The notes beneath the pieces are model-generated. The model was given only the letters and a program-made list of their open reading frames with translations. It did not search any database and was not told where the DNA came from. The translations under genes were made by a program, and so were the position numbers. From an uncultured Candidatus Saccharibacteria bacterium (lineage in GTDB: Bacteria; Patescibacteriota; Minisyncoccia; Ryanbacterales; GWA2-47-10b), in NCBI GenBank assembly GCA_964356915.1, contig CAYHJF010000003.1, positions 83,579-130,603 on the forward strand: 47,025 nt of DNA, in the 5' to 3' direction. Of this stretch, positions 2,230 through 42,869 are shown in pieces. The stretch's first letter is position 1; every line of letters begins with the position of its first letter.

Positions 2230-3132
2230 TTATGCTGCACGCGCCCCTGAAGGCTTGTCAGCGGTTACGATAATATACTCACAAAGGCCAGCTTTAAAAA
2301 TACTATAGACGGCGCGATCGATAATATACCCTCCTACGATACCCTTCCAAAAACCACGAACTCGCGCGGCTCCAATCATCATTTCAAGCCTCCGATGATT
2401 TCGATAGTACCCGGGGATTACATACTCACCGACATATCGTATTTCAATATTGCAAAAGCCGATTTGCTCCATGATGGCACGCAACGTATCAGGACCATAA
2501 ATATTCGCGCGAGGAACTTGCCATACCTTAGCTCCAAAGTTTACTGCCCACTGCTCAAGCGTACCTCGCGGATCTCGCATGAGCGCAAAATCAGAAAATG
2601 AGATTCGCCCACTCGGCGCTAGTACGCGATACATTTCTCGTAAAAATTCTTCGCGCGTATTAATGTGCTCGGGCACTTCGATGGACATTGCATGAGTCAT
2701 ACTGTGATCTTGCAGTGGCAAATGAGTACCCGTGCCATGATTGAATGCTACCCGGGTTTCAGGAATACGCTGTCGCTGGGCGCGCTCTCGTGCACGCTTC
2801 ACATGAACATATGTTACGTCATACCCAATCAATCTTGCCGGACGATACTCCCAATACACCTGACACTCGGGCGCACCATTCCCAAAACCAATCGATAAAA
2901 GCTTACTACTACTAGTCAAACCGAGCGGATCAACTATTTGGCGCACCAAATTCTCAGCGCGCTCAAGATAATCAGCATCGGGACAACCCACAAGGTCATA
3001 TCCAAACCCCAAATGCCCTCGATTGAAATTGTGATAGTGTTGTATGCCCGCTCCGTAAAACTGCTCTACTGCGTGTTCATGACTTTTTATAGACCATGTT
3101 CGGCGACCACGCGCCAAATCTCCCGCATTCAT
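2230..3132 (-). CDS. Class I SAM-dependent methyltransferase (sterol/tocopherol/cyclopropane-type)
   Basis: LLSIGFGNG SAM motif I variant, SIEVPEH, EMYRVLAPSGRI, N-terminal GHLGFGY. Confidence 0.8.
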   Translation of the reverse strand: MNAGDLARGRRTWSIKSHEHAVEQFYGAGIQHYHNFNRGHLGFGYDLVGCPDADYLERAENLVRQIVDPLGLTSSSKLLSIGFGNGAPECQVYWEYRPARLIGYDVTYVHVKRARERAQRQRIPETRVAFNHGTGTHLPLQDHSMTHAMSIEVPEHINTREEFLREMYRVLAPSGRISFSDFALMRDPRGTLEQWAVNFGAKVWQVPRANIYGPDTLRAIMEQIGFCNIEIRYVGEYVIPGYYRNHRRLEMMIGAARVRGFWKGIVGGYIIDRAVYSIFKAGLCEYIIVTADKPSGARAA

Positions 3133-3195
3133 GAAAGCCTCCGTACTTTATTCTGAAATTGTTTTACAGGAGGGAAGAAGTCATGTCAATCTAAG

Positions 3196-3238
3196 ATAAA
3201 CAAAAACAAGAGATTCAATGTCTCTTGTTTTTGTTTAT
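3196..3238. terminator. Intrinsic terminator after tRNA-Gln
   Basis: 18-bp perfect inverted repeat ATAAACAAAAACAAGAGA / TCTCTTGTTTTTGTTTAT. Confidence 0.8.
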
Positions 3239-3240
3239 AG

Positions 3241-3311
3241 CTCCGGGACAGGGACTCGAACCCCAATTTCTTGATTCAGAGTCAAGCGTCCTGCCATTAG
3301 ACGATCCCGGA
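3241..3311 (-). tRNA. tRNA-Gln(CTG)
   Basis: Acceptor TCCGGGA/TCCCGGA, anticodon loop CT-CTG-AA, T-loop TTCGAGT. Confidence 0.95.
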
Positions 3312-3366
3312 ATATACTACCTGATTATTCCCTGCCGGCAGCAAACATCACCAAATAGTTTTCCGA

Positions 3367-4275
3367 TTATAGCTTAAGATACCGTCGAGTTGCAACGAAA
3401 CTTGAGAGTACGCCCAAAACTATACCTATAAACAACAACGTGAAAAATATCGAGAAAATATGTGACGTATAGTATTGAAATACATCAACGTTGCCAAAAA
3501 AATCTTTTGTCTTTGGTCCAAGCCACAATGTCAGCGGCCAAAAAATCAATATCGTAACAATAGTTGCCAGAACTCCATAGAGTGCGCCTTCTACAAGAAA
3601 TGGCCCTCGCACAAACCAGTTGGACGCACCAACAACACGCATCACCGCGATTTCATCACGCGCAGTGTAGATTGCAAGCCGAATTGTATTAAATGCGACA
3701 AGAAATGCGATGACACTTAACACTGTCACAACCCCAGCTCCTACGCGACGTGACACTGATAAAATCATCGTTAACTTATCAAAGATCGCCTTATTCTGAC
3801 GATAATTTACTTTATCGATACTCAAGAAACTTCCGTCTTCAATAAACTTAGCGATTGACTCATATTTCCCAGGATCCTTCGCTCTCACTTTCAGTGTTGC
3901 ATTCAATGGATTCTCCCCTAACTCTTCGAGTGCGCTTGTAATAAGCGCGTTCCCCTCATGATTTTTCTTGAATGCTTCGAGTGCTGCTTCTCGAGATACG
4001 TATTCAACATTCTTTACTTCGGGTAATCCCAATAAAAGATCTCGCACACTAACAATTTCTTGCTCTGTGGCATCAATCTTAAAATACACGCTCACATCTA
4101 CCTTACTCTCAATATCAGCAAGCGTAGACGACAAGAGTACTTGGAAAAACATTAAACTACCTACTACAAAAAGAGCGAGTACCATCACTGAAACCGTAGC
4201 GACAGAAACCCACGCATTTCGAGAAAAGCTTAGAAGTGCATTTTTGAATACTCGTCGAAGATTTGTTGCCAGCAT
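3367..4275 (-). CDS. ftsX: Cell division permease FtsX
   Basis: NTIRLAIY...EIAVMRVVGASNWFVRGPFLVEG motif; directly follows ftsE. Confidence 0.93.
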   Translation of the reverse strand: MLATNLRRVFKNALLSFSRNAWVSVATVSVMVLALFVVGSLMFFQVLLSSTLADIESKVDVSVYFKIDATEQEIVSVRDLLLGLPEVKNVEYVSREAALEAFKKNHEGNALITSALEELGENPLNATLKVRAKDPGKYESIAKFIEDGSFLSIDKVNYRQNKAIFDKLTMILSVSRRVGAGVVTVLSVIAFLVAFNTIRLAIYTARDEIAVMRVVGASNWFVRGPFLVEGALYGVLATIVTILIFWPLTLWLGPKTKDFFGNVDVFQYYTSHIFSIFFTLLFIGIVLGVLSSFVATRRYLKL

Positions 4276-4968: not shown

Positions 4969-6023
4969 GTTCGATACATTCATCGAGATCGCCATCGAGC
5001 ACTGCGTCCACATCATTCGTCTCATAATTATTGCGATGATCTTTTACCATCATATATGGATGAACAACGTATGAACGAATCTGGCTCCCCCATTCAATCT
5101 TAACGGGACTCTCGCCTTTGAGCCCTGCGATTTCTTTCTTTTTTGACTCTTCACGCATTGTAACTAATTTTGAACGAAGAATCGAGAGCGCGATATCACG
5201 ATTTGCCGCTTGTCCGCGCTCAGAGTCAACGTGTATTTGAATTCCTGTCGGTACGTGCACAATACGCACTGCGGTTGAACGCTTGTTAACATTTTGCCCT
5301 CCCGGACCCGAAGAGCGCGCGAAACTAATTTCAATATCATCATCTCTAATTTCAACGTCAGCGGTTTTTGGTAACACGGGCAATACTTCTACATATGCAA
5401 AACTTGTATGCCGTAATTTTTTTGAAGAAAAGGGCGAAATACGCACGAGACGATGCACGCCCATTTCGCGACGCAAATATCCATATCCGTATGTCCCATC
5501 GATCTGAACTGTCGCATTCTTGATGCCACCATGTTCATTCTCATGCTTATGCAATATTTCAAAGCGCCAATTCTTTCGTTCGGCATATCGTGTATACATA
5601 CGAAACAAAATACGCGCCCAATCTTCCGCGTCTTGACCGCCAGCCCCTGCAATAATAGTGAGCACCACTCCAGACTTATCATACGGCCCAGATAAAAGTG
5701 CTTTTTTTCGCTCTTTTTCAAAAAGACGCTCAAGTGTTGCGCACTCGGACTCAATACCAGCGTCATCAGAAATTTGAGCAAGCTCTTTAAGTGACCCGAC
5801 ATCACTCAAAAGCTTATCCCATAATCCAATATCATCTTTAAGTTCTTTAATTTGAGCGCCGACATCTCGCGCGCGCTCGTGGTTACGCCAAAAATCTTCC
5901 GACTGAGTTTCGGCCTCGAGCTTCAGTAATTCTTCTTTTTTAGCGCGCAGGTCAAAGATGGTCCGCGACTTCGCGGACCCGAGTCTCCAGTTCTTGAATA
6001 CGATTCAAAAATTCAGATGTCAT
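4952..6023 (-). CDS. prfB: Peptide chain release factor 2 with programmed +1 frameshift
   Basis: SPF (RISPF) and GGQ motifs. A 23-codon ORF from ATG 6023 ends at CTT TGA C (5957-5951), and the +1 frame continues [22 protein letters not shown]. Confidence 0.96.
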
Positions 6024-6061
6024 AACAAAAGACTATCAAAAATCAAACGCCCTGTACATTG

Positions 6062-6134
6062 AGCCACCTCCCGGATTCGAACCGGGGACCTCTGCTTTAC
6101 GAAAGCATTGCTCTACCAGCTGAGCTAAGGTGGC
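6062..6134 (-). tRNA. tRNA-Thr(CGT)
   Basis: GCCACCT...AGGTGGC acceptor, loop TT-CGT-AA, TTCGAAT. Confidence 0.95.
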
Positions 6135-6161
6135 ACGCGCGATTATAGGATAACCGCGCGA

Positions 6162-6710
6162 CTAGCTTATCATGTCTTTTTGCTCTTGGCGAGATATAAC
6201 AAAGCCCAATCCGAGTGCCATAATCGTCTGCCAAACACTTAAAAGTGCTAGCAAGTTTACACTAGCATCATCTCCGCCAAACAACCCCTTCAGTGGTCCT
6301 CCGATAAACCAGCTGAGCCCAAGAACGCCACCTACTGCGACAAGTGCAAAAAAATGTTGCGCTCGCAATCGAACAAGAAAAAAATGGAACCCTACAAGCA
6401 TGAGGAACGACCCAATACCGCCACCTATCAAAAAAGCAACGTACTGCGCAGCTCCACCATCTCCACCTATATCAATAGCCCGCAACGTCGTATAAACAGC
6501 GGCATAATAGCTAGCAGTAGAAATGAGAATCCATGGGATCCCCCACAAGATATTAACGCGTCGTGATACAAAAACTACCAAACCCACACAAACTCCAAAA
6601 ACAACACCTGGGACATAAAATAAAAGTGCCAAACTTTGATAAGAAGTAACGAGATAATAGGAAATTACTCCAGACACAAAACCGCTCAGAGCAAAAAATA
6701 ATTGAGACAT
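6162..6710 (-). CDS. Hypothetical multi-pass membrane protein
   Basis: 182-aa Gly-rich hydrophobic ORF with about 6 TM segments. Confidence 0.75.
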   Translation of the reverse strand: MSQLFFALSGFVSGVISYYLVTSYQSLALLFYVPGVVFGVCVGLVVFVSRRVNILWGIPWILISTASYYAAVYTTLRAIDIGGDGGAAQYVAFLIGGGIGSFLMLVGFHFFLVRLRAQHFFALVAVGGVLGLSWFIGGPLKGLFGGDDASVNLLALLSVWQTIMALGLGFVISRQEQKDMIS

Positions 6711-17275: not shown

Positions 17276-18130
17276 TCAAGATAATATCTCTCCGAGAAGC
17301 CCCCAAAACTGTGGCCAGCTTTTAGTAACTGCTTCGGGATGTTCAAACTGCACTTCTTTTTTCTCCACCTTCCCTTTCATCGCAAGCGCCTGTACCACGC
17401 GATGATCCCACGACGTAATTGGCTTCCCTGCTTCAAAATTTTCTAACTCCACCTCCATCACTTCTATCCTATTGCTCTCATGGCCCTCTAGATTGGGCCA
17501 ACGCTCTTTTCCCTCCTTCTGAGTAATATATCCAAAGGCTCGGGCAAAACAATAATCCTCAGCTTGGTGTGGTACAAACTCTGGCTGCTCACCTCGCATA
17601 AGCGCTATAAACGTCTCTGCTTGGCGCAATATCGTCTCATCATATCGTAGCTCCCACGTCATCCCTTTGGCACGTCTTTCGCGCCAGTGACTTACCGCTT
17701 CATATGTAAGCTTCAACTTAAATGACGAATTTTTTATTACTTCATCTCTACCACACAACAGTGCAGCACTCGCCCATTGTGACGTACCATGATCAAGTTC
17801 AAGAAGCTTTGAGAGTGAATATGAAATAATGCCCGCATCGTTTGTGATGGGACGATCTTTGAGAGTTCCTTGTTTGATAAAAACTTTATTGAAACCAAAA
17901 TGCCAAGAAGCAAATTGCAAAAATCGATAGAGCGTTCCCGACTCCCCTACATCGATCGCTTCATCTGTATGCCACGCGCGAGCTGCACGTAACAACGCCT
18001 CCAAATCATCGGAAAGATTATTCTGCACCTCAAGAAATATCTCGATATCAGAGTATCCGTTGACGATATCGAGCACGCCAACTCGCATCATCCACGACTT
18101 ATCGAGCGGAATATATTCTTTAATATTCAA
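17276..18130 (-). CDS. Shortened EPSP synthase (AroA)-like / enolpyruvyl transferase-fold protein
   Basis: PLDKSWMMR, DVGESGTLYRFL, TSQWASAALL, ESNRI, DHRVVQAL and VTKSWPQFW mirror AroA motifs; likely TTG start at 18130 after AGGAGAGG. Confidence 0.75.
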   Translation of the reverse strand: MNIKEYIPLDKSWMMRVGVLDIVNGYSDIEIFLEVQNNLSDDLEALLRAARAWHTDEAIDVGESGTLYRFLQFASWHFGFNKVFIKQGTLKDRPITNDAGIISYSLSKLLELDHGTSQWASAALLCGRDEVIKNSSFKLKLTYEAVSHWRERRAKGMTWELRYDETILRQAETFIALMRGEQPEFVPHQAEDYCFARAFGYITQKEGKERWPNLEGHESNRIEVMEVELENFEAGKPITSWDHRVVQALAMKGKVEKKEVQFEHPEAVTKSWPQFWGLLGEILS

Positions 18131-18641
18131 TTCCTCTCCTCGCTTTTTTGCCTTCATAAAATGGATGCTTAACATCTTTGATCTCACTGACAAGATCGGC
18201 CTCATCAATCAAGGATTGTTTAGCTCCCCTACCCGTCAAAATCAAATCTACTTTTTTCTCTCGACTTGTACGAATTAACCGGAGCGCATCTTCTTCGGCA
18301 ATCAAACCTAGATCAATCGCATTGTGTATCTCATCGGCAATAATAATATTCCATTGTTCACCTTCCACTTCACGAATCAATTCTGCGAGCGCATCTTTCG
18401 CCGCCCCCTCATGTTCCTCACGCGGAAGCGTATCATTTAAAATTCCGACGAATCCTTTGCCGCGCTTTCGTAATTCAAAATCCGGAAGCAGACGCTTGTG
18501 CGATTCGTCTTCGCCCGACGGCCACGGCCCTTTGATAAACTGAATCATCAATACTTTTTTACCATCTCCGACCGAACGAAGTGCTTGCCCCAACGCCGCA
18601 GTCGTCTTCCCCTTTCCATCGCCAGTAAAGATATAAATCAC
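18120..18641 (-). CDS. btuR: Cob(I)yrinic acid a,c-diamide / cob(I)alamin adenosyltransferase (BtuR/CobO)
   Basis: IFTGDGKGKTTAALG, QFIKG, DLILTGR, KHPF...ARRGIEY. Confidence 0.93.
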   Translation of the reverse strand: MIYIFTGDGKGKTTAALGQALRSVGDGKKVLMIQFIKGPWPSGEDESHKRLLPDFELRKRGKGFVGILNDTLPREEHEGAAKDALAELIREVEGEQWNIIIADEIHNAIDLGLIAEEDALRLIRTSREKKVDLILTGRGAKQSLIDEADLVSEIKDVKHPFYEGKKARRGIEY

Positions 18642-33342: not shown

Positions 33343-35808
33343 ATGAAATCAAAGGAACCGAAACCAGAGCAAGAAGTAGCACACGTTCAGCTGCGTGATA
33401 TCGCGCGCGAAATGCGCGAATCATATCTCGACTATGCAATGTCGGTTATTGTTACGCGCGCGCTACCTGATGTACGTGATGGACTCAAACCAGTACATCG
33501 TCGCATCCTCTATACAATGCGTGGGATGGGGCTCCGTCATACTACAAAACATCGCAAATCTGCCGCAGTCGTTGGTGACGTACTTGGTAAATATCACCCG
33601 CACGGTGACGCTCCAGTGTACGATGCGCTCGCGCGCATGGCTCAAGATTTTTCTATGCGCTACCCGCTTATTGATGGACAGGGAAACTTTGGATCGATCG
33701 ATGGCGACTCTCCTGCTGCGATGCGTTATACCGAAGCTCGCATGGCCGCGCTCTCTGACGAGCTTCTTCTTGATATCGACAAAGAAACAGTTGATTTTAT
33801 GCCGAACTATGATGGCACCCGAGAAGAGCCAACGGTATTCCCCGCTCGCATCCCCTATCTTCTTCTCAATGGCTCCTTAGGAATTGCAGTTGGTATGGCG
33901 ACCAATATTCCTCCCCATAACCTTACAGAACTCATCAATGCGGCTCTTACGCTTATCGAAAATCCAAAAGCAACGACTGAAGATTTACTTGAACACATCA
34001 AGGGTCCTGACTTTCCTATGGGAGGGATTATTTTCAATAAACAAGATATTCACCAAGCATATTCAACTGGCAAGGGTAGTATTGTAGCCCGCGGAGAAGC
34101 AGAGATCATCGAAAAAGAAACGGGACGCGGACACGCAATTATCATCACCTCCATTCCATATCAGGTAAACAAGGCGGAGATGATTGAAAAAATGGCTGAT
34201 TTGGTACGAGAGAAAAAAATCGATGGCATCAAAGATATTCGCGACGAATCGGATAAAGATGGGCTTCGCGTTGCTATTGAGTTGAAAAATGACGCGTACC
34301 CTCAAAAGGTACTCAATAATCTCTACAAACATACTGATCTCGAAAAAGTATTCCATTTAAATATGCTCGCCCTTGTAGGCGGTATTCAACCTCAAACACT
34401 CTCTCTCAAACACTATTTTGAGGAATTTGTCGCCACTCGCCGAATCATGGTTGATCGACGAACCCGTCACGACCTACGAATCGCCGAGGAACGCGCTCAT
34501 ATTCTTGAAGGACTCAAAAAAGCTCTCGACCACATCGATGAGATCATCAGTACAATCAAAAAATCTAAAGACCGAGAGAGCGCGCACACAAACCTCATGC
34601 AAAAGTTTAAGCTCTCAGAAAGACAATCGACCGCAATTCTTGAAATGCGCCTCCAAACACTCGCTGGGCTTGAACGTAAAAAGATTGAGGATGAACTCGC
34701 AGAAAAACGCGCGATTATTAAAGATTTGAAAGCGATTCTCGCCGACCCTAAGAAACTCTTGGCGGTGATAACAAAAGAACTTATCGAAATTCGTGATAAA
34801 TACGGGGACGAACGACGTACAAAAGTTGTCGCTACAGGCGTGAGCGCAATGGCGACAGAAGATCTTATACCCGAGGAAGAGCAGGTTGTACTAATGACGC
34901 AGGGCGGGTATTTGAAACGTGTACGACCTCAAGAATTTCGTGCTCAACGAAGAGGCGGCAAAGGTACTATTGGTGGTGAATGGAAAGAAGAAGATGTAGT
35001 TTCTCAATTCGCTACCGCAAATACCCACGACTCCCTTTTGTTCTTCTCAAGTCTTGGAAAAGTATACGAGTTACGAGTCTTCGAGATCCCCGAGAGCTCG
35101 CGCACGGCAAAAGGACGCCCCGTCGTCAACTTCCTTCCCCTTGCAGCCGGTGAAGAGATCACTTCTTTCCTTTCAGTACCAAAGAAAACAAAAGGAGAGA
35201 AAGACCAAGCGCTCATCATGACAACCCGCAAAGGAATCGTTAAAAAAACAACATTTAGCTCGTTTGCTGGAGTCCGTAAATCGGGCATCATCGCCATGAA
35301 ACTACAGAAAGGAGATGTACTGGGCTGGGTACGAATTCTAGATCTTGGAGCCGATATCATGCTGTTCTCAAAGAAAGGACAAGCTATCCGTTTTAAAGAG
35401 AAGCAACTGCGCGACATGGGACGTCAGGCTCAGGGTGTACGTGGTATGAGGCTTAAATCGGGCGATGAAATCATCGGCTGCGAAGTAATTGGCAAAGAAA
35501 GAAAAGACGCCGAAGTCTTTGTTGCAAGTACGCTTGGATTTGGTAAACGCAGTAAAGCAAGTGAATTTAAAGCACAATCTCGCGGAGGCTCTGGCGTAAA
35601 GACAATGAACGTCGGAGAAAGCACAGGACCTCTTGTTGCGGCATGCGTACCCGATCCTGCCGCCGAAGAATTTATCGCAATCTCAGCAAAAGGAAAAACA
35701 CTCCGTAGTCATATAAAAGAAATCCCAACACTCAAGCGCGCAACTCGCGGCGTCCGCATTATGCGCTTTGAATCAGGTGACCGCCTCACGAATATCGCAC
35801 TTTTGTAG
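33343..35808 (+). CDS. gyrA: DNA gyrase subunit A
   Basis: [29 protein letters not shown], GyrA box QRRGGKG. Confidence 0.98.
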
Positions 35809-35821
35809 TACAATGGAAGCC

Positions 35822-36358
35822 ATGAAAGGCTTCTCGAATCCGGAAGAAGTAGTTGAACATCTTAATTTATATGGGGCAATGAAAATTGCTGACTTTGGTG
35901 CACATGCGGGATTTTGGGCACTTCCACTCGCTCGACATATTACATCAGAGGGAGTTGTCTACGCGCTCGATGTTCAACGAGAACCCCTCCGGCTCCTCGC
36001 TAAACGTGCGGGTGAAGCAAATCTCCACAACATTCGAGTTATGCACGCTGATCTTGAGCGGTCTGAGGGTAGTAAACTCAAAACAGATTCTATAGATCTC
36101 GTACTCGTGGCTCATATTCTTTTTCAAGTCAGTGAAAAAATGCATATACTAAAGGAAGCGCATCGGATTCTAAAAAAAGGTGCTCGCATTGTACTTGTGG
36201 AATGGGATACTGTTGAACCGCGCCCAATTGGGCCCGCACGTGAACATCGAATTGATAAAAAAGAGTTGGAACGTTTGCTTATCGAGGCTCAATTCGAGAA
36301 TATTTCCCACTTCAATCTTAGCAATCATCATTACGGTATTATCGCTCACAAAAAATGA
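35822..36358 (+). CDS. Class I SAM-dependent methyltransferase
   Basis: IADFGAHAG, VYALDV, EAHRILKKG; start MKGF with TACAAT 7 nt upstream (35813 is an alternative). Confidence 0.85.
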   Translation: MKGFSNPEEVVEHLNLYGAMKIADFGAHAGFWALPLARHITSEGVVYALDVQREPLRLLAKRAGEANLHNIRVMHADLERSEGSKLKTDSIDLVLVAHILFQVSEKMHILKEAHRILKKGARIVLVEWDTVEPRPIGPAREHRIDKKELERLLIEAQFENISHFNLSNHHYGIIAHKK

Positions 36359-37644
36359 ACATCGTTCAAGTTATCGTTATCGGGCTTTGCATCATCGCAG
36401 TTATTCTCGCAATACTTTTTTGGTCCGGAATTATTGGACCTCAAAGAGGTACTGTTGACCCAGGTGGAGGCCAAGCATTTTCAGGAGAAGTACGTGTCTG
36501 GGGCACATTACCCTCTGATAGCTACATAGACTTTTTTACTGAATATGAAGCTTCAAAAAATATTCGAGTGAGCTATTCCCAGCACGCACCAGAAAAATTT
36601 ACCGAAGAAATCGTTCGCGCGATTGCTCGTCGCGAAGGACCTGATGTGGTACTTATCGACATTGACTGGATTACTTCAAATTATGACATCTTGACCCCTA
36701 CTCCGCCCGAAGTCATGCAACCCCAAGAATTTCGTAACACGTTTATCGATGCCTCCGAAGTAGATCTCGTACGAGAAGATAAAATTTGGGGATTCCCGAT
36801 TGGTATCGATCCGCTGGTACTGTACTGGAACAAAGATATCTTTAATGCAAACTCTATCCCCCTCCCACCAAAAAATTGGAATGAAGTACTCACACAGTCA
36901 AACACTATTAAACGGATTAAAGATGGTGGCGTAGTAGGACAGGCTGGTATCGCGCTCGGACGATCGCGCAACATACCGCTCTACAAAGAAATCGTATCGC
37001 TCCTTTTACTCCAACTTGGGGGCTCAATTGAGAATCAAGCAGGAGAACTCATACTCAACTCGCCCTCAAACCAAGATGTTGGTGGACGTGTATTTAGATT
37101 TTTTACAGATTTTGGAAAATCTGGAACAGAGGCATACTCATGGACAACCGCTCTCCCACCACCGCGCGTTCTTTTTAGCCAAGGAAAACTTGGCATGATG
37201 CTCGACTATCTATCTTATGAATCACAACTTCGAGAACAAAATCCTCATATTTCTTTTGACATCGCTCCTCTACCCCAACCTCAAGGCAACGAAGTGCCAA
37301 TTTATTACGCAACGACAAATGCCGTAGCTGTACTTGTTGGATCGCCGAACATCGCACCTGCCTGGCAATTTGCAAAATCTATATCAGGAGCAGGAGGAGT
37401 ACAGCGCCTTCTTGTACAGCACGTGATTAATGTACCTGCGCGACGAGACCAGCTTAATACGCTCGCGTTTACCGAAAATCCTCGACACGAGCTCCTACGT
37501 ACGATCGCACTCAACACGCGCCGCCCTATTAATACCCACACTCAAAGAAACTCAAACCTCATCGCTGATATCATAGAAGCTATCGCGAATGGACAACTAT
37601 CTTCAGAAATTGCCATATCTCAGGCACTTGAAAAAACAAAATAA
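36355..37644 (+). CDS. Extracellular solute-binding protein (ABC SBP family 1 type)
   Basis: N-terminal TM, VWGT, GPDVV, WGFPIGIDPLVLYWNKDIF, PPKNWNE, FDIAPLPQ. Confidence 0.88.
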   Translation: MNIVQVIVIGLCIIAVILAILFWSGIIGPQRGTVDPGGGQAFSGEVRVWGTLPSDSYIDFFTEYEASKNIRVSYSQHAPEKFTEEIVRAIARREGPDVVLIDIDWITSNYDILTPTPPEVMQPQEFRNTFIDASEVDLVREDKIWGFPIGIDPLVLYWNKDIFNANSIPLPPKNWNEVLTQSNTIKRIKDGGVVGQAGIALGRSRNIPLYKEIVSLLLLQLGGSIENQAGELILNSPSNQDVGGRVFRFFTDFGKSGTEAYSWTTALPPPRVLFSQGKLGMMLDYLSYESQLREQNPHISFDIAPLPQPQGNEVPIYYATTNAVAVLVGSPNIAPAWQFAKSISGAGGVQRLLVQHVINVPARRDQLNTLAFTENPRHELLRTIALNTRRPINTHTQRNSNLIADIIEAIANGQLSSEIAISQALEKTK

Positions 37645-37645
37645 C

Positions 37646-38092
37646 ACCACATGACCCGCCTTCTCTCACTTACTCTCCTTCTCTTCCTCATCCCTCTCAC
37701 ATCATTTGGCGCAACAACACTCGTACCAACAGGATGTCAGGCAGGATGTCCGTGTACACTCTGTGACTTCTATCTTCTCGCGCACAATATCATCACCATA
37801 CTCTTTGAGTTGATGGCGATCATCGCCGTTCTTTCATTTTTGTATGGTGGTATTTTGATCATGACATCTGGAGGGAGTGAAGGAAAAGTAAAACAAGGGA
37901 AAGATGCGATCACAAGTGCTGTCATTGGCGCACTCATCGCGGGGCTTGCATGGCTCTTTTTTAGTGCCGCGCTAAACTCACTAACATTTGGAATTAAAAC
38001 CGTTACGCTCGACGGGTTCTTTAAACCGCTTGCGTGCAATACGGGAGGAGGAGAATCATGTAACACGACATTTAAACCGAAGCCGCCTCCGG
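37646..38092 (+). repeat. 447-bp direct repeat, copy 1
   Basis: Identical by eye to 38719-39165 (offset 1073). Confidence 0.95.
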
Positions 38093-38727
38093 ACCCCGCG
38101 ATCGCACGCCTCATGCAAGAAATGGACCAAGGAACGTTTCGAAATGGTTTTGATACAAGCGACCCTGCATTTGCACGCTGCCAAGGAACTGAAGCTGCAT
38201 CCTGCTCATGGAAAGGTGCGGGGGTTCCACCAGACCCCAATGCAGTAAATAACGTCATTAATAACTATAAAGACGAAATTATTGCAGCTCTTGGAGCAAA
38301 CGCTACTCCAGAAAACATCGCGGCTGTAGCAGCAATTATGGCAACGGAATCTGGAGGAAGACCAAATGTTTCAAGCCCAGCAAATGCGCATGGTCTCATG
38401 CAAATGATTCCGAGTACTGCGCGCCTTGTTGACCCATCGCTACGAGGAATGTCGGACGCACAAATTGCAGCAAAACTAAAATCAGACCCTGCGTATGCCG
38501 TAACTCTTGGTACTCAACACTACATGGCACTTCAGAATAAATATGGCCCTGACCTTGCTGCTGCCGCGTACAATGGTGGAGAAGGAGCACTCCGTAAAAG
38601 TAAAACGTGCCCCGGACAAATGTACTGGGAATGTGAAGCAAACGCTGGTTATAGAGAAACGCGCAACTATGTTGCAAAGGTAAAGGGAGCTCGCGACGAG
38701 GTACGAAGACGACTTGGAACCACATGA
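37651..38727 (+). CDS. CPR-type pilin (TrbC/VirB2-like) fused to a soluble lytic transglycosylase (SLT) domain
   Basis: Signal peptide, CxxxCxCxxC, YGGILIMTSGGSEGKVKQGKDAITSAVIG pilin motif; C-terminal AAIMATESGG, GLMQ, AAYNGG, ETRNYV. Confidence 0.9.
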   Translation: MTRLLSLTLLLFLIPLTSFGATTLVPTGCQAGCPCTLCDFYLLAHNIITILFELMAIIAVLSFLYGGILIMTSGGSEGKVKQGKDAITSAVIGALIAGLAWLFFSAALNSLTFGIKTVTLDGFFKPLACNTGGGESCNTTFKPKPPPDPAIARLMQEMDQGTFRNGFDTSDPAFARCQGTEAASCSWKGAGVPPDPNAVNNVINNYKDEIIAALGANATPENIAAVAAIMATESGGRPNVSSPANAHGLMQMIPSTARLVDPSLRGMSDAQIAAKLKSDPAYAVTLGTQHYMALQNKYGPDLAAAAYNGGEGALRKSKTCPGQMYWECEANAGYRETRNYVAKVKGARDEVRRRLGTT

Positions 38728-39165
38728 CCCGCCTTCTCTCACTTACTCTCCTTCTCTTCCTCATCCCTCTCACATCATTTGGCGCAACAACACTCGTACC
38801 AACAGGATGTCAGGCAGGATGTCCGTGTACACTCTGTGACTTCTATCTTCTCGCGCACAATATCATCACCATACTCTTTGAGTTGATGGCGATCATCGCC
38901 GTTCTTTCATTTTTGTATGGTGGTATTTTGATCATGACATCTGGAGGGAGTGAAGGAAAAGTAAAACAAGGGAAAGATGCGATCACAAGTGCTGTCATTG
39001 GCGCACTCATCGCGGGGCTTGCATGGCTCTTTTTTAGTGCCGCGCTAAACTCACTAACATTTGGAATTAAAACCGTTACGCTCGACGGGTTCTTTAAACC
39101 GCTTGCGTGCAATACGGGAGGAGGAGAATCATGTAACACGACATTTAAACCGAAGCCGCCTCCGG
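38719..39165 (+). repeat. 447-bp direct repeat, copy 2
   Basis: Identical by eye to 37646-38092. Confidence 0.95.
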
Positions 39166-39617
39166 CAGCCCTCCCCTCAAGTAATCCTGGCGAACCTTCA
39201 GCCGACGCAATTCAAAATGAAAACGCCGCGCGAGCAGCATTGGGAGGCATACCAGTTAACAACCCGCCGTGCCCTGCAGGCGTGAGCTTCCAGCAATATC
39301 GCTCAACTCATGGTGGGCAAGGATGCACCACGGTCGCGGGACTCTCAGCTCAAACGCTCGCAACCCTTAAAGACATCCACTCCCGCACTGCATTTACCAT
39401 CTCTGGCGGCACAGAGGCCGGACACGCATCCCATGGCACCGACCATCCCAGCACTATAGACGTTACTTCTGGCAATTATGCTGGCCTTTTTAGAGAGCTT
39501 CGAGCAAAGGGCTATAACGAAAGTAATTTTGGACGTGGCTATACATGTGAAGACTCAGCGGGGCACCGTATTGCATGCTCAAGCGGATCAATCCACCACG
39601 CTCACCTCGAACTCTAA
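38724..39617 (+). CDS. CPR-type pilin fused to a putative LAS/M15-like zinc peptidase domain
   Basis: Same first 147 aa as the previous gene; C-terminal ISGGTEAGHASHG..IDV and terminal HAH. Confidence 0.75.
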   Translation: MTRLLSLTLLLFLIPLTSFGATTLVPTGCQAGCPCTLCDFYLLAHNIITILFELMAIIAVLSFLYGGILIMTSGGSEGKVKQGKDAITSAVIGALIAGLAWLFFSAALNSLTFGIKTVTLDGFFKPLACNTGGGESCNTTFKPKPPPAALPSSNPGEPSADAIQNENAARAALGGIPVNNPPCPAGVSFQQYRSTHGGQGCTTVAGLSAQTLATLKDIHSRTAFTISGGTEAGHASHGTDHPSTIDVTSGNYAGLFRELRAKGYNESNFGRGYTCEDSAGHRIACSSGSIHHAHLEL

Positions 39618-39643
39618 TAAAACTCCGTGATATAATAAAAACC

Positions 39644-39985
39644 ATGAAACGCGCCCGCCTATTTACACTATTTCTCTTAATCGGGGTCTCTGTCCCTCTC
39701 CTATCTCTCGCGGCTGGAGATTATGGAGACCTACTAAAGCTTGGCTGCAACTCTATCCCCGCCTGTCTTCGACAATTTGCAAATTTCATACTAGCAAAAG
39801 TCCTCGTACCGTTGAGTGTCGTAACTATATTTTATGCGGGTTTTTTGTTCGCGACAGCAGGCGGATCTGATGCAAAGATCACGAGTGCAAAAAAAACCCT
39901 CACGTACGGGGTTATCGGCATTGCTGTAGCGTTTGGAGCGATCGCTCTCGGTGAAGCACTAAAGGACTTTATCGACCATCTATAA
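39644..39985 (+). CDS. TrbC/VirB2-like pilin
   Basis: YAGFLFATAGGSDAKITSAKKTLTYGVIG; start MKRARL after TG-a-TATAAT. Confidence 0.85.
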   Translation: MKRARLFTLFLLIGVSVPLLSLAAGDYGDLLKLGCNSIPACLRQFANFILAKVLVPLSVVTIFYAGFLFATAGGSDAKITSAKKTLTYGVIGIAVAFGAIALGEALKDFIDHL

Positions 39986-39989
39986 AATC

Positions 39990-40373
39990 ATGTATATCCA
40001 CAAGAACTTTACCCGAAACATCATTTTTACTATACTAGTATCAGCGCTCGTTTTATGCGCAGACGCTGCGTTTGCCGCTACTCCCCCAAACTTCACCAAC
40101 CCAGTCGCCTCAAACGACTTTGGAACGGCCCTCAAAAAGATCGCGAATGCGGTCATGAAAATAGGAATCCCCGTTCTCACTGTCGCCATCGTCTATACCG
40201 GCTTCCGGTTTGTCATGGCGCAAGGGAACGAAAAGGAACTAGAGGACGCAAAGAAGATGTTGTTTTGGGTTGTCATTGCAACCGCGGTCATTATGACGGC
40301 GCCAGTCATCGCCAATATTGCATGTAATTTCTCGAAGGCTCTTGACCCGAGCGCGACGTTCACCTGTCCGTAA
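39990..40373 (+). CDS. TrbC/VirB2-like pilin
   Basis: Signal peptide, FTNP, YTGFRFVMAQGNEKELEDAKKMLFWVVI. Confidence 0.88.
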   Translation: MYIHKNFTRNIIFTILVSALVLCADAAFAATPPNFTNPVASNDFGTALKKIANAVMKIGIPVLTVAIVYTGFRFVMAQGNEKELEDAKKMLFWVVIATAVIMTAPVIANIACNFSKALDPSATFTCP

Positions 40374-40447
40374 TGCGCGTATACATCTAAAAAAGGTCGG
40401 TTTCACTCAACATATAACTAGTCGTTATTAGTAAACATATAAATACC

Positions 40448-40792
40448 ATGAACAAAGCATTAAAATATTCACTGCGAGCACTCTTACTTGCATCTCCGAC
40501 ACTCGCATATGCAGCAACATTGAACACGTACTTTACAAATACAATTAAGCCATTCTTAAGCTTACTTGTTAACATTCTTATCGCAGTTGCAGTATTCGTT
40601 CTTATCCTCGGTATCTTTAGCTACATTACTGCAGCTGGAGACGAAGAAAAGATGAAATCTGCACGCAGCTACATTCTCTACGGAGTTATTGGTGTTGCGC
40701 TTATGATCCTTATCCGTGGGTTCATCGATATCGCAGTCAATACGATCTCCCCTGGTCTTGTCACAACAACGCCAACAGCAGCTGGACTCTAG
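40448..40792 (+). CDS. TrbC/VirB2-like pilin
   Basis: GIFSYITAAGDEEKMKSARSYILYGVIG. Confidence 0.88.
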   Translation: MNKALKYSLRALLLASPTLAYAATLNTYFTNTIKPFLSLLVNILIAVAVFVLILGIFSYITAAGDEEKMKSARSYILYGVIGVALMILIRGFIDIAVNTISPGLVTTTPTAAGL

Positions 40793-40798
40793 ATCTTA

Positions 40799-41047
40799 AT
40801 GGCGGCGACATTCAATGGTATTCTAAATACCATCAACAAGGAACTGATCAATCCTTCCCTTCGGTTTCTTCTCTGGCTTGCAATTGCGGTATTCGTGTAT
40901 GGCGTGCTTAAAATCATCATGAATCCGGACAATCCAGACATACTCTCGGAAGGTCGTCGTCACGTATTATGGAGTCTCGCAGGCTTTGTGATTATGCTTC
41001 TCGTTTTTGGGATCATCAATCTCATCAAAGCAACGCTTACTCCGTAG
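40799..41047 (+). CDS. Pilin-like small membrane protein
   Basis: FVYGVLKII...EGRRHVLWSLAGFVIM. Confidence 0.8.
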   Translation: MAATFNGILNTINKELINPSLRFLLWLAIAVFVYGVLKIIMNPDNPDILSEGRRHVLWSLAGFVIMLLVFGIINLIKATLTP

Positions 41048-41058
41048 TATTAGAATAG

Positions 41059-41097
41059 AAATCAAAAAACCACCTACGACGGTGGTTTTTTGATTTT
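41059..41097. terminator. Bidirectional terminator
   Basis: AATCAAAAAACCACC-TACGAC-GGTGGTTTTTTGATT. Confidence 0.85.
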
Positions 41098-41103
41098 TCA
41101 TTA

Positions 41104-42375
41104 CTATACAAATAAATACGATGATTGAAGAAAAAACGTCGTGCTCATCACCATGATCAAAAGCACGGTGACTCGATTAAATAATCGTTCAGACATCACC
41201 TTAGTTCCCAACGAAATAAGCACGAGATACCCAAACAAAACCGATGGAAAATAATGATAAATAAATAAACTCCGAGGTAGAAAAAATAACGGAGCGAGAG
41301 AAACCACGTAGCAAACAAAAAATAACTGCTCAGACAAAGAAAACTTTTTTACTGAATACCCAAGCAAACCAAAAAGAAAAAGAGCCGCTGCTCCAATAAC
41401 TGCAACGAGAATCAATCCCCACCCAAACCCACTCATCACCGCTAGACAATGATCTGGACACACGCCCCATACATTCATTTCACCTCCCCCCGCTATCCAC
41501 GTAAGAGGAGTACTCCGTGCAGGATGATAAAAAAGATCACTGCCAATCGAGTACGTGACTTTTGTATATGCTGGCAAAAAATTTATAATCGCAGCGAGCG
41601 ATTCACCTCCCGGGTACTCAACCCCCATAAGCTTATCTGTGTATTCAGCCGCACTAATTGGACCTGGAGGAAATTGCACTAAAAACGCAACCCACAAAAA
41701 TATATATATGCTGGCAACCCCGCTCAAAAAATATAATGCGCTTTTCATGGTACGCGTAGAAATTATATATACCAGAATACCCCCCACAAGTGCGAGCGCG
41801 GTCCACTTAATAGACAACGCGAGCCCCGCCATTAGAGCGGCCGCCATGAAAAATGAATCCCGTCGCGTTCTATCCGCGTACACAATAAAAAATATCGAGA
41901 AAGCAGAGAAAAAAAGCAAAAGCGTTTCCGGTAACATAAGACGCGAGTAAAGCGTAAGCGCGGGGTCAAGTGCGATGAAAATTCCGCCGAGAGCTGCGGG
42001 CAACGTCTTTTGCCCCGCTCCCCGCAAAATACCCATTACTAACACGGCAAGACCCGATCCGATAAAGGCATTAAAAAAACGAATGCGCCAATATGGGAAA
42101 TCACCGAACGGCATTCGTATCACATTAAGATTTCTATAAGGCTGATATATCGGATGCGCGCCCGCAACGATCGAAGCAAATGTAAGTTTTACGAGAGGAG
42201 GATGGATATCAAATACAGGTCTTGCGTAGATTGTATTGAGCGTTGTCGCCGCATAAAGACCTTCATCAAAAACTATCGAGGGTGGATTAAAAATAAATGG
42301 CAATCGTACTCCAAGAGCCAGCGTAAAAACCGCTAGTAAAGCGATCGTGTCTCGTGCATACCAAGAGTTACTCAT
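41104..42375 (-). CDS. PMT/GT39-like phospholipid-carrier-dependent glycosyltransferase
   Basis: VFDE, FDIHPPLVKL, SRLMLPE, ALSIKWT, FIYHYFP; start MSNSWY at 42375 (the ORF-track extension overlaps tRNA-Leu). Confidence 0.85.
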   Translation of the reverse strand: MSNSWYARDTIALLAVFTLALGVRLPFIFNPPSIVFDEGLYAATTLNTIYARPVFDIHPPLVKLTFASIVAGAHPIYQPYRNLNVIRMPFGDFPYWRIRFFNAFIGSGLAVLVMGILRGAGQKTLPAALGGIFIALDPALTLYSRLMLPETLLLFFSAFSIFFIVYADRTRRDSFFMAAALMAGLALSIKWTALALVGGILVYIISTRTMKSALYFLSGVASIYIFLWVAFLVQFPPGPISAAEYTDKLMGVEYPGGESLAAIINFLPAYTKVTYSIGSDLFYHPARSTPLTWIAGGGEMNVWGVCPDHCLAVMSGFGWGLILVAVIGAAALFLFGLLGYSVKKFSLSEQLFFVCYVVSLAPLFFLPRSLFIYHYFPSVLFGYLVLISLGTKVMSERLFNRVTVLLIMVMSTTFFLQSSYLFV

Positions 42376-42381
42376 AATAAG

Positions 42382-42464
42382 TGCCGCGGGTGGGATTCGA
42401 ACCCACAAGCCCTTTCGAGCCAAGGATTTTAAGTCCTCTGCGTAAACCGTTCCGCCACCGCGGC
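42382..42464 (-). tRNA. tRNA-Leu(TAA)
   Basis: GCCGCGG acceptor, loop CT-TAA-AA, long variable arm. Confidence 0.95.
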
Positions 42465-42554
42465 AAGTAAACCTAGCGACATCATACTCTAAAAATACTG
42501 GAATGAAAATGGGGGGTGCGCCCAAATACATACAAAATAAAAGCGCCTCAACTA

Positions 42555-42869
42555 TTATGATATTTTTATGCGTAGATGTATCAAAGCCTTTTTGATGATG
42601 TCAGCAACAGTTTTTCGATTTATGTTTTTCTTTTTACAATAACTAGACTCTAACCAATAAGATAATTCTTTCGACCCCTTACTCGCATTACATGACCAAC
42701 AACAAAGCGCGATATTATTATTAGTAATAATCTTCGCATTATTAATTATATGCTCCCACGTTGGTTTAGATGTATAATCGATACCAAATGGAGTACCACA
42801 ATATACACAACGCTTATCTCTTGCGCGAACTTCATCTTCAAGCCAGCGCGGAATATTCCATCTATTCAT
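42555..42869 (-). CDS. HNH endonuclease
   Basis: RDKRCVYCG...WEHII...NIALCCWSCNASKG. Confidence 0.88.
   Translation of the reverse strand: MNRWNIPRWLEDEVRARDKRCVYCGTPFGIDYTSKPTWEHIINNAKIITNNNIALCCWSCNASKGSKELSYWLESSYCKKKNINRKTVADIIKKALIHLRIKIS

Follow-up and report, generated by a model that had tools for sequence, protein, structure and literature searches.

Two neighbouring genes that couple one VirB2-like pilin module to different hydrolase-type domains: candidate wall-opening enzymes of a Patescibacteria type IV secretion system

Two adjacent genes in a 47,025-nucleotide (nt) stretch of DNA from an uncultured, ultra-small Candidatus Saccharibacteria bacterium of groundwater (GTDB lineage Patescibacteriota, Ryanbacterales; assembly GCA_964356915.1, contig CAYHJF010000003.1; the whole stretch is referred to as the window) begin with the same 447 nt and then continue into different sequence. 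What do the two proteins do, and what keeps their first parts alike? The first, gene 1, encodes a VirB2-like pilin module followed by a predicted lytic transglycosylase domain of the SLT family, and the second, gene 2, encodes the same module followed by a domain, called X here, which is probably a metal-dependent enzyme. The best explanation overall, to which we assign a probability of about 0.6 from the sequence comparisons below, is that the pair represents split, pilin-anchored, VirB1-like wall hydrolases of the Patescibacteria type IV secretion system (T4SS), whose hairpins would have been homogenised by gene conversion. The source genome (G000) totals 880,616 bases in 9 contigs and is 99% complete. 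A family-level comparison covered 10 species genomes, and a class sample of 401 genomes was used for the wider survey.

The repeat and the two proteins

The two genes overlap in the tetranucleotide ATGA, which holds the stop codon of gene 1 (TGA) and the start codon of gene 2 (ATG), and the stop codon of the upstream gene lies 6 nt ahead of gene 1. The features of the pair are as follows.

37646–38092, + strand: repeat copy A, 447 nt; a 5-nt leader and codons 1–147 of gene 1
37651–38727, + strand: gene 1 (P0002), 358 residues; VirB2-like pilin module, Pro-rich linker, predicted SLT lytic transglycosylase
38093–38718, + strand: SLT-encoding unique tail of gene 1, single copy in the genome
38719–39165, + strand: repeat copy B, 447 nt, letter for letter the same as copy A
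38724–39617, + strand: gene 2 (P0001), 297 residues; same pilin module, disordered linker, X domain at about residues 160–297
39166–39617, + strand: X-encoding unique tail of gene 2, single copy in the genome

The copies form a direct repeat with a spacing of 1073 nt from start to start. Each begins 5 nt upstream of the ATG of its gene, and the identity ends at both edges of the 447 nt. The tails that follow (635 and 452 nt) reach a best local alignment score of merely 14 and are thus unrelated. The 880,616 bases of the genome contain two copies of the repeat and a single copy of each tail. The support for the two copies comes from contigs (see below), so that "identical" is to be read as identical or nearly so. 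The SLT tail together with one repeat copy is what recombination from repeat to repeat would delete. A promoter and terminator scan of positions 35500–41600 was uninformative, with 7 promoter-like sites found and 9.8 expected.

The shared module consists of a signal peptide, a four-Cys motif, a hairpin of two hydrophobic helices joined by a short Lys-rich loop (SGGSEGKVKQGKD), a two-Cys segment and a linker with the sequence KPKPPP, all of which are encoded within repeat copy A. Hydrophobic stretches are found at residues 1–27, 40–75 and 85–113. The module matches the T4SS_pilin family PF18895 with 34.5 bits in gene 1 (residues 44–106) and 34.7 bits in gene 2, both above the cut-off of 26.6 bits. 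In the AlphaFold2 model of full-length gene 2, the two helices (residues 37–71 and 77–112) are predicted with a local confidence score (pLDDT) of 88–97 and the X domain with a score of about 95, while the linker (residues 133–159) scores below 50. By analogy with VirB2, the topology of the module would put the C-terminal enzyme outside the membrane. Cysteines 29, 33, 35 and 38 (positions 37735–37764) precede helix 1, and cysteines 129 and 137 (38035–38061) follow helix 2. Some VirB2 pilins undergo head-to-tail cyclisation; speculatively, the six cysteines, all of which would lie outside the membrane, could link the ends of the hairpin by disulfides instead.

The C-terminal part of gene 1 matches PF01464 (SLT) over residues 225–318 with 60.5 bits (cut-off 21.3 bits). 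It contains ES at 233, GLMQ at 248 and AYNGG at 306, which we take to be the ES (catalytic Glu), GLMQ and AYNxG motifs of the family 1 lytic transglycosylases. Residues E74, S75, G89, L90, Q92, Y148 and N149 (alignment numbering) are invariant across 6 aligned orthologous SLT tails; orthologous tails with 34–54% identity are present in G004, G006, G037 and G040. Gene 1 is the sole SLT-domain match in the genome. A word-based homologue search with the SLT part returned 4 proteins, too few for architecture counts. Based on the family match and the intact motifs, gene 1 is clearly predicted to be a glycan-cutting lytic transglycosylase.

For the X domain, a Pfam search with residues 147–297 of gene 2 returned zero families even at E ≤ 10, a sequence search of the PDB gave chance matches only, with nothing relevant, and a word-based homologue search returned the gene 2 protein alone. 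A HMMER scan of 1.84 billion representative proteins identified 69 X-domain cluster representatives at E ≤ 1e-3. Most of these relatives have 280–350 residues, with the X domain at the C-terminus, and 42 of the 69 contain PF18895. Among 60 X domains of the class sample, the most conserved positions are E231 (57/60), H234 (57/60), H237 (58/60), D246 (59/60) and H292 (58/60); position 294 is His in 35 and Asp in 23. The resulting pattern, a His and an Asp separated by 8–9 residues plus a C-terminal HxH or HxD on the last strand, is nearly invariant, and its His–Asp spacing exceeds that of the M15 motif by one or two residues. In addition, X domains have a Cys-rich subdomain at the N-terminus and a further conserved motif, GGTE-x-GH.

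The X domain was also modelled alone, from an alignment of 64 rows from which five matches of more than 700 residues had been excluded, with a pLDDT of 92.9 and a predicted template modelling score (pTM) of 0.85. The top PDB fold matches of this model are weak and comprise the C-terminal domain of S. pneumoniae VldE (9flm and 9flj; E 0.74–0.79, template modelling score (TM) 0.34–0.47) and Hedgehog-N. Weak top matches in the viral database BFVD include entries named "Peptidase", a Hedgehog-like entry (probability 0.84), M15A, M15B and MepK, and the ESM Atlas returned M15_2, M15_3, VanY and MepK clusters at TM 0.46–0.62, all below the Atlas bar. Canonical M15_3 (PF08291), sought for comparison in 121 class genomes, was found in none of them. 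X may resemble the LAS/M15/Hedgehog peptidases (MepK, VldE, Hedgehog-N) in its consistent weak matches and in its His/Asp and HxH/HxD pattern, and differs from them in the lack of any significant match, in the additional GGTE-x-GH motif and in its Cys-rich subdomain. Judged from its conserved residues, X is probably a conserved, metal-dependent enzyme. It probably cuts peptide stems, its peptidase nature being a lead, and a LAS-type fold is the best lead for its structure, weakly supported and not established. X merits definition as a family of its own, as it occurs in 62 of the 401 class genomes and its E, H, H, D and H residues are almost unchanging.

An earlier note, made from the letters of this DNA alone, had described ATGA-coupled genes with an identical 447-nt 5′ region and unrelated tails, a module of the VirB2/TrbC pilin type and an SLT domain in gene 1. 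The exact repeat, the tail score, the two PF18895 scores and the SLT match with its three motifs bear out this description. It had also put forward a putative LAS/M15-like assignment for the second C-terminus. The consistent weak matches and the H..H..D..HxH/D pattern agree with that assignment, whereas Pfam and PDB sequence searches gave no match and Foldseek and hhalign no significant one.

Pilin arrays, T4SS genes and a possible role in wall opening

In the window, the pair stands between a binding-protein gene and a series of small pilin genes.

36355–37644, + strand: gene of a membrane-anchored SBP_bac_1 solute-binding protein (PF01547, 5.2e-16), directly upstream of gene 1
39644–39985, + strand: small pilin 1 (PF18895 26.1 bits, just below the cut-off of 26.6; TrbC 24.4 bits)
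39990–40373, + strand: small pilin 2 (PF18895 45.1 bits and PF04956 TrbC/VirB2 37.6 bits, both above their cut-offs)
40448–40792, + strand: small pilin 3 (PF18895 33.6 bits)
40799–41047, + strand: small pilin 4, a weak match (PF18895 19.1 bits; NCBIfam Mbov_0395 28.6 bits, cut-off 40)

The array thus runs from the binding-protein gene through pilin–SLT and pilin–X to four small pilins. For small pilin 1, the open reading frame (ORF) list gives a start at 39575, and the ATG at 39644, past the stop codon of gene 2, is likelier. No ABC permease or ATPase gene is near the SBP_bac_1 gene in the window, and this gene may be a component of the pilin-array module and not of a transporter. The core of the T4SS is encoded on another contig and includes a VirB6-like protein of 843 residues, PrgI, a VirB4-like ATPase and a third pilin fusion (270 residues). 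The ATPase was identified through PF19044 and AAA_10; a search of this genome for the VirB4 family PF03135 gave no match. No recognisable hydrolase was found among the 10 proteins scanned at this core.

Similar arrangements recur in the class sample. The X profile matches 62 of the 401 genomes and the SLT-tail profile 44, with both in 7. X loci were counted as 60, i.e. without L051 and L064, in which the pipeline of ORF calling and hidden Markov models (HMMs) called no X ORF. A pilin module is detectable in 53 of the 60, and pilin-fused open frames of 295–1032 residues are common in relatives. An X-fusion lies at most 3.5 kb downstream of virB4 in 12/60 loci. In 28/60, an X-fusion or an SLT+X pair stands directly behind an SBP-like gene, and small pilins follow in all 28; the gap between the SBP-like gene and the X-fusion (loci L024–L074) ranges from -10 to +19 nt and widens to about 1.1 kb when a pilin–SLT gene stands between them. 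In G218 and G100 the order is binding protein, pilin–SLT, small pilins. The head gene of the array thus bears X, SLT or both across the class.

Two separate hairpin–hydrolase genes are found in G000, G004, G006 and G110. The G110 pair (L022) is situated inside the virB4 operon, with hairpin–X at 3024–3854 and hairpin–SLT at 5228–6214, 1.4 kb apart and separated by a gene of 463 residues. Its hairpin comes without signal peptide and Cys motif and was missed by the pilin HMM. G080 (L046:2272–4605) encodes a single 777-residue chain, pilin–X–SLT, downstream of virB4 (PF18895 26.5 bits, just below the cut-off), which provides a Rosetta-stone type of link between the two enzymes. G184 and G205 combine X with a small single-helix SLT protein that has no hairpin; in each, the SLT gene is located on a different contig from the X gene, the two have no repeat in common, and the genome was excluded from the pair count. 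Directly after the pilin–X gene, G378 (L060:3963–4820) encodes a 285-residue protein of three tandem pilin modules, and G204 (L052:4004–4741) a second X-domain protein of 245 residues, without a detectable pilin module.

Both genes resemble VirB1-like hydrolases of monoderm systems, with which they would share glycan- plus peptide-cutting activity, a membrane anchor and service to a T4SS (all predicted here); G080 has the one-chain version. CwlT of ICEBs1 is a further VirB1-like two-domain hydrolase. The differences are that two genes are involved here, that the anchor is a VirB2-type hairpin as opposed to a single helix, and that X is neither CHAP, NlpC/P60 nor M23. A location in the T4SS operon was not found in this genome, in contrast to G110 and G080.

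In monoderms, VirB1 proteins contain both a transglycosylase and a peptidase domain (TraG of pIP501, PrgK of pCF10), VirB1 is lacking in most genomes with VirB2, and VirB1 matches bear M23 or LysM (PMC12102498). The VirB2 arrays of Patescibacteria (Wang et al. 2023, PMC10633639; Quinonero-Coronel et al. 2025, PMC12102498) belong to the same Pfam family as the module described here, and are likewise chromosomal multi-pilin arrays with a monoderm-type T4SS elsewhere. Published arrays are divergent in sequence (mean identity 25% and maximum 54% over 441 VirB2 arrays; PMC12102498), whereas in the present array two members show 100% identity along 147 codons and have enzyme domains attached. In S. 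epibionticum, the one Patescibacteria species tested genetically, the T4SS and the pilin array are essential (PMC10633639, PMC12857230), as are peptidase and lysozyme homologues downstream of virB4 (PMC12102498). The pilus of the Patescibacteria T4SS is described as still hypothetical (PMC12857230), and the role of the system and its route through the cell wall as open questions (PMC10633639, PMC12857230). Pilin–hydrolase fusions are not mentioned in the available part of PMC12102498. Within the literature library searched, no paper on such fusions or their concerted evolution was found; the supplements of PMC12102498 might list such architectures.

The assignment of the pair to the T4SS is plausible, to about the degree given above for the explanation as a whole, because of the PF18895 module, the proximity to virB4 in 12/60 loci, the position at the head of the array in 28/60 and the single-chain fusion of G080. 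The locus combines known kinds of elements, namely VirB2-like pilins, VirB1-like hydrolases and concerted evolution. The sequence data show the repeat, the domain composition, the conservation of the pair and of its gene order, and modules that match within genomes but diverge between them. The following scheme goes further and is inferred in what it says on catalysis by X, on a part in the T4SS, on the orientation in the membrane and on selection, if any, for identical modules. The pair would encode two extracytoplasmic peptidoglycan hydrolases, each on a flexible Pro-rich linker extending from the same signal peptide and hairpin module. The array may serve the chromosomal T4SS whose core operon sits on the other contig. 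The hairpin would enter the membrane as T4SS pilins do, its two ends remaining on the outer side, and would thereby place the enzymes at, or in, the site of pilin assembly. Cutting of glycan strands and peptide stems there would open the wall, either the cell's own or that of a host. Gene conversion of the RecA type would repeatedly overwrite one hairpin copy with the other, and the resulting identity could be neutral, as tandem identical tracts recombine, or selected, if both enzymes must fit the same machine. Pilin–transglycosylase and pilin–probable-peptidase fusions could thus supply the missing wall-opening function of the Patescibacteria T4SS. As they head pilin arrays or adjoin virB4, and are homogenised wherever two coexist, they offer concrete proteins for testing.

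Several results weigh against this interpretation. None of the listed fold matches of the full-length model is a VirB2 or TraA structure, and the A2 profile, searched against the PDB, reached VirB2 (8cue) merely at E = 0.29, amid membrane-protein noise. For X, peptidase Pfam families were found in 0 of the 69 relatives, and Foldseek searches of the PDB and BFVD with the X model gave 0 matches at E ≤ 0.001. Alignment of X with E. coli MepK by hhalign gave probabilities of 0.11% over 13 columns and, in a second run, 1.08% (E 0.049) over 24 columns. In either run the aligned region pairs the His/Asp motif of X with the HTKGQAMD segment of MepK; the comparison profile consisted of E. coli MepK and 11 close homologues, and its low diversity makes this test a weak one. 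The pair is located in a housekeeping neighbourhood, on a contig other than that of the virB4 operon. No SLT partner was found in the intact loci of G001, G003 and G005, so that this partner is dispensable in close relatives. Furthermore, neutral gene conversion accounts for the identity of the modules without any functional constraint, and identity in metagenome assemblies might mask a few collapsed differences.

Two alternatives concern the function of the pair. Both enzymes might be armed pilin subunits within one T4SS pilus or stalk, with the identity of their modules arising from the constraint of sharing a polymer and recurrent gene conversion as the mark that this constraint leaves in the genome. 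This is unlikely; if true, the enzymes, the small pilins and the binding protein would form a wall-drilling filament by which epibionts reach the cytoplasmic membrane of the host. Rather more doubtful is the possibility that the proteins are housekeeping autolysins for the growth and division of the cell's own wall, with the hairpin as a mere anchor and no role for a T4SS or pilus. The presence of murJ, ftsZ, ftsA and ftsX in the neighbourhood and the status of gene 1 as the only SLT-domain protein of the genome would fit such enzymes, as would the failure of the fold search to retrieve a solved VirB2 structure (among the matches listed) and the description of the pilus in Patescibacteria as undemonstrated (PMC12857230). 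However, the hairpin exceeds the PF18895 cut-off, the pair is at the head of an array in which four small pilin genes follow, X-fusions stand beside virB4 in 12/60 loci and the G110 pair is part of a virB4 operon. Moreover, the SLT protein is missing in the close relatives G001, G003 and G005, which would be odd for a housekeeping enzyme.

Relatives and the origin of the module identity

The gene order of the window, with a binding-protein gene followed by pilin–SLT, pilin–X and small pilins, is shared by G004 and G006. Perfect intragenomic repeats are found in G000 (447 nt), G004 (427 nt), G006 (385 nt) and G110 (230 nt), i.e. in 4/4 of the genomes with two separate hairpin–hydrolase genes; the remaining intralocus repeats, between small pilins, reach at most 84% identity. 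The 230-nt repeat of G110 (3114–3343 and 5315–5544) covers only the hairpin, and the N-terminal 30 residues of its two genes differ. At the amino-acid level, the N-modules are 99–100% identical within a genome versus 45–57% between the three genera represented by G000, G004 and G006 (27–71% over all 12 compared sequences). Orthologous N-modules are 51–58% identical in nucleotides, and their identical residues use the same codon in only 24/64, 32/63 and 34/76 cases. Selection at the protein level therefore cannot explain the nucleotide identity. The SLT tails are 34–54% identical between genomes, and the X tails 25–43% between genera and 71% within a genus. The identical tracts end at the border of module and linker on their 3′ side, at about nucleotides 442–450 of the genes, while their 5′ ends vary (-5, +24 and +61).

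The common gene order and the orthologous tails across three genera indicate that the pair is older than their split. Within-genome identity in the face of between-genome divergence, the bounded tract and the recurrence in independent lineages point to recurrent gene conversion acting on an ancestral pair. Based on these comparisons, the identity of the module is very probably due to gene conversion, i.e. to concerted evolution. The tufA/tufB genes and the rRNA operons are bacterial paralogues under concerted evolution. As in the tufA/tufB type, identity within a genome is accompanied by divergence of orthologues and the tracts end with the homology, and RecA is encoded in this genome. In contrast to that type, the process here would affect one module of otherwise unrelated multidomain genes, in four lineages.

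The earlier note had favoured another organisation, similar to that of polymorphic effectors, in which a constant pilin N-terminus carries exchangeable tips; recombination would shuffle these tips, and a pilus would present them for breaching the wall of a host. Polymorphic toxins of the CDI and Rhs types have a constant N-terminus and a variable C-terminus, and the pair resembles them in joining an identical, delivery-type N-terminal module to unrelated C-terminal enzymes. Class-wide, the head gene behind the binding-protein gene bears X, SLT or both, the X-only loci resemble products of repeat-by-repeat deletion, pilin-fused frames of 295–1032 residues are common in relatives, and the topology would set the C-terminus outside the cell. 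This organisation is nevertheless improbable. Only two C-terminal types occur at the locus, each orthologous across genera, and it is the N-module, not the C-terminus, that varies between genomes; the claim of a constant N-terminus with variable C-termini is thus contradicted by the relatives, which carry the same two tails, an outcome that the note had itself listed as refuting. Orphan C-terminal cassettes and immunity-like genes were not seen downstream of the pair, where four small pilin genes are found instead, and the contigs of four sequencing runs contain no joint, deletion or swap, although contigs could miss one.

The same note had proposed that recombination across the repeat would delete, amplify or swap cassettes. 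The intact loci of G001, G003 and G005, which contain pilin–X only, look like the product of such an event and fit this part of the proposal, whereas no rearranged form was present in the contigs. The SLT tail was also not found in G001, G002, G007, G008 and G009; this result says little for the last four, because their contigs stop at the module and a bin would lose any cassette of less than 1 kb. These contig ends fall at the pilin module or X gene (G002:C48, G007:C14, G008:C25 and C28, and G009:C6; loci L045, L070, L069, L012 and L068). Such breaks in 4 of the 10 family genomes are compatible with an unresolved perfect repeat and prove nothing.

The note had further stated that perfect identity implies recent duplication or gene conversion, and the perfect repeats of four genomes support conversion. 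An independent and very recent duplication of the module in each lineage is highly improbable. Perfect identity alone cannot separate one event from many; however, the gene order and the orthologous tails (29–54% identical) are common to three genera, so that the pair predates their split, and four fresh duplications with the same end point at the module–linker border would be needed.

The integrity of the two copies was assessed with Logan contigs (not reads) from 4 public runs of 2 studies, one of these runs being possibly from the source sample, aligned to positions 37000–40200. They show 0 differing letters, 0 indels and 0 joints in this region, and no noteworthy loose ends; stretches without contig cover carry no weight. 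Since rare variants are lost in Logan contigs and small bubbles may be popped, a few copy differences or a minority deletion or circle form could escape. The junction from the upstream flank into the repeat is bridged by contigs of runs X1 and X3, that from the SLT tail into the repeat by contigs of X1, X2 and X5, and those from the repeat into the SLT tail and into the second tail by contigs of X1 and X2. One X2 contig (38063–39165) extends from the SLT tail through the entire copy B with 0 differences. In X1 the repeat forms a separate 447-nt contig with a depth of 21.1, compared with 7.1–9.2 in the unique flanks. This depth is 2.6 times that of the flanks (21.1 versus about 8), and not twice, which may reflect noise, a related strain with the same module, or additional copies in a fraction of the population. 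Strongly diverged repeat copies are excluded by these data, and the collapse of diverged copies by the assembler, which the note had named as a possible refutation, finds no support in the contigs of the 4 runs, which agree with the window. An assembly artefact, with one copy duplicated or two diverged copies collapsed, is barely credible. In its favour, the genome was assembled from a metagenome, the repeat exceeds the length of short reads, assemblers pop small bubbles and the contigs of four relatives break at the pilin module. Against it, every type of two-copy junction was found in independent runs with 0 differing letters, the depth of the repeat contig is 2.6 times that of its flanks, and three other genomes were assembled with this architecture as well.

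Other features of the window

The remainder of the window is of a housekeeping nature and includes gyrA, ftsZ, ftsA, hisS, a ribonucleotide reductase gene, infB, lepA and murJ; ftsX is also present in the neighbourhood. Right after the pilin array, in convergent orientation, lies a gene for a membrane protein resembling the PMT-family protein O-mannosyltransferases (41104–42531, - strand), which could glycosylate envelope proteins. Between this glycosyltransferase gene and infB there is a stand-alone HNH endonuclease ORF of 104 residues (42555–42869, - strand). An ORF of 310 residues at 17276–18208 (- strand) matches only positions 372–415 of the 417 positions of PF00275 (EPSP synthase/MurA type), and may be truncated or mis-started.

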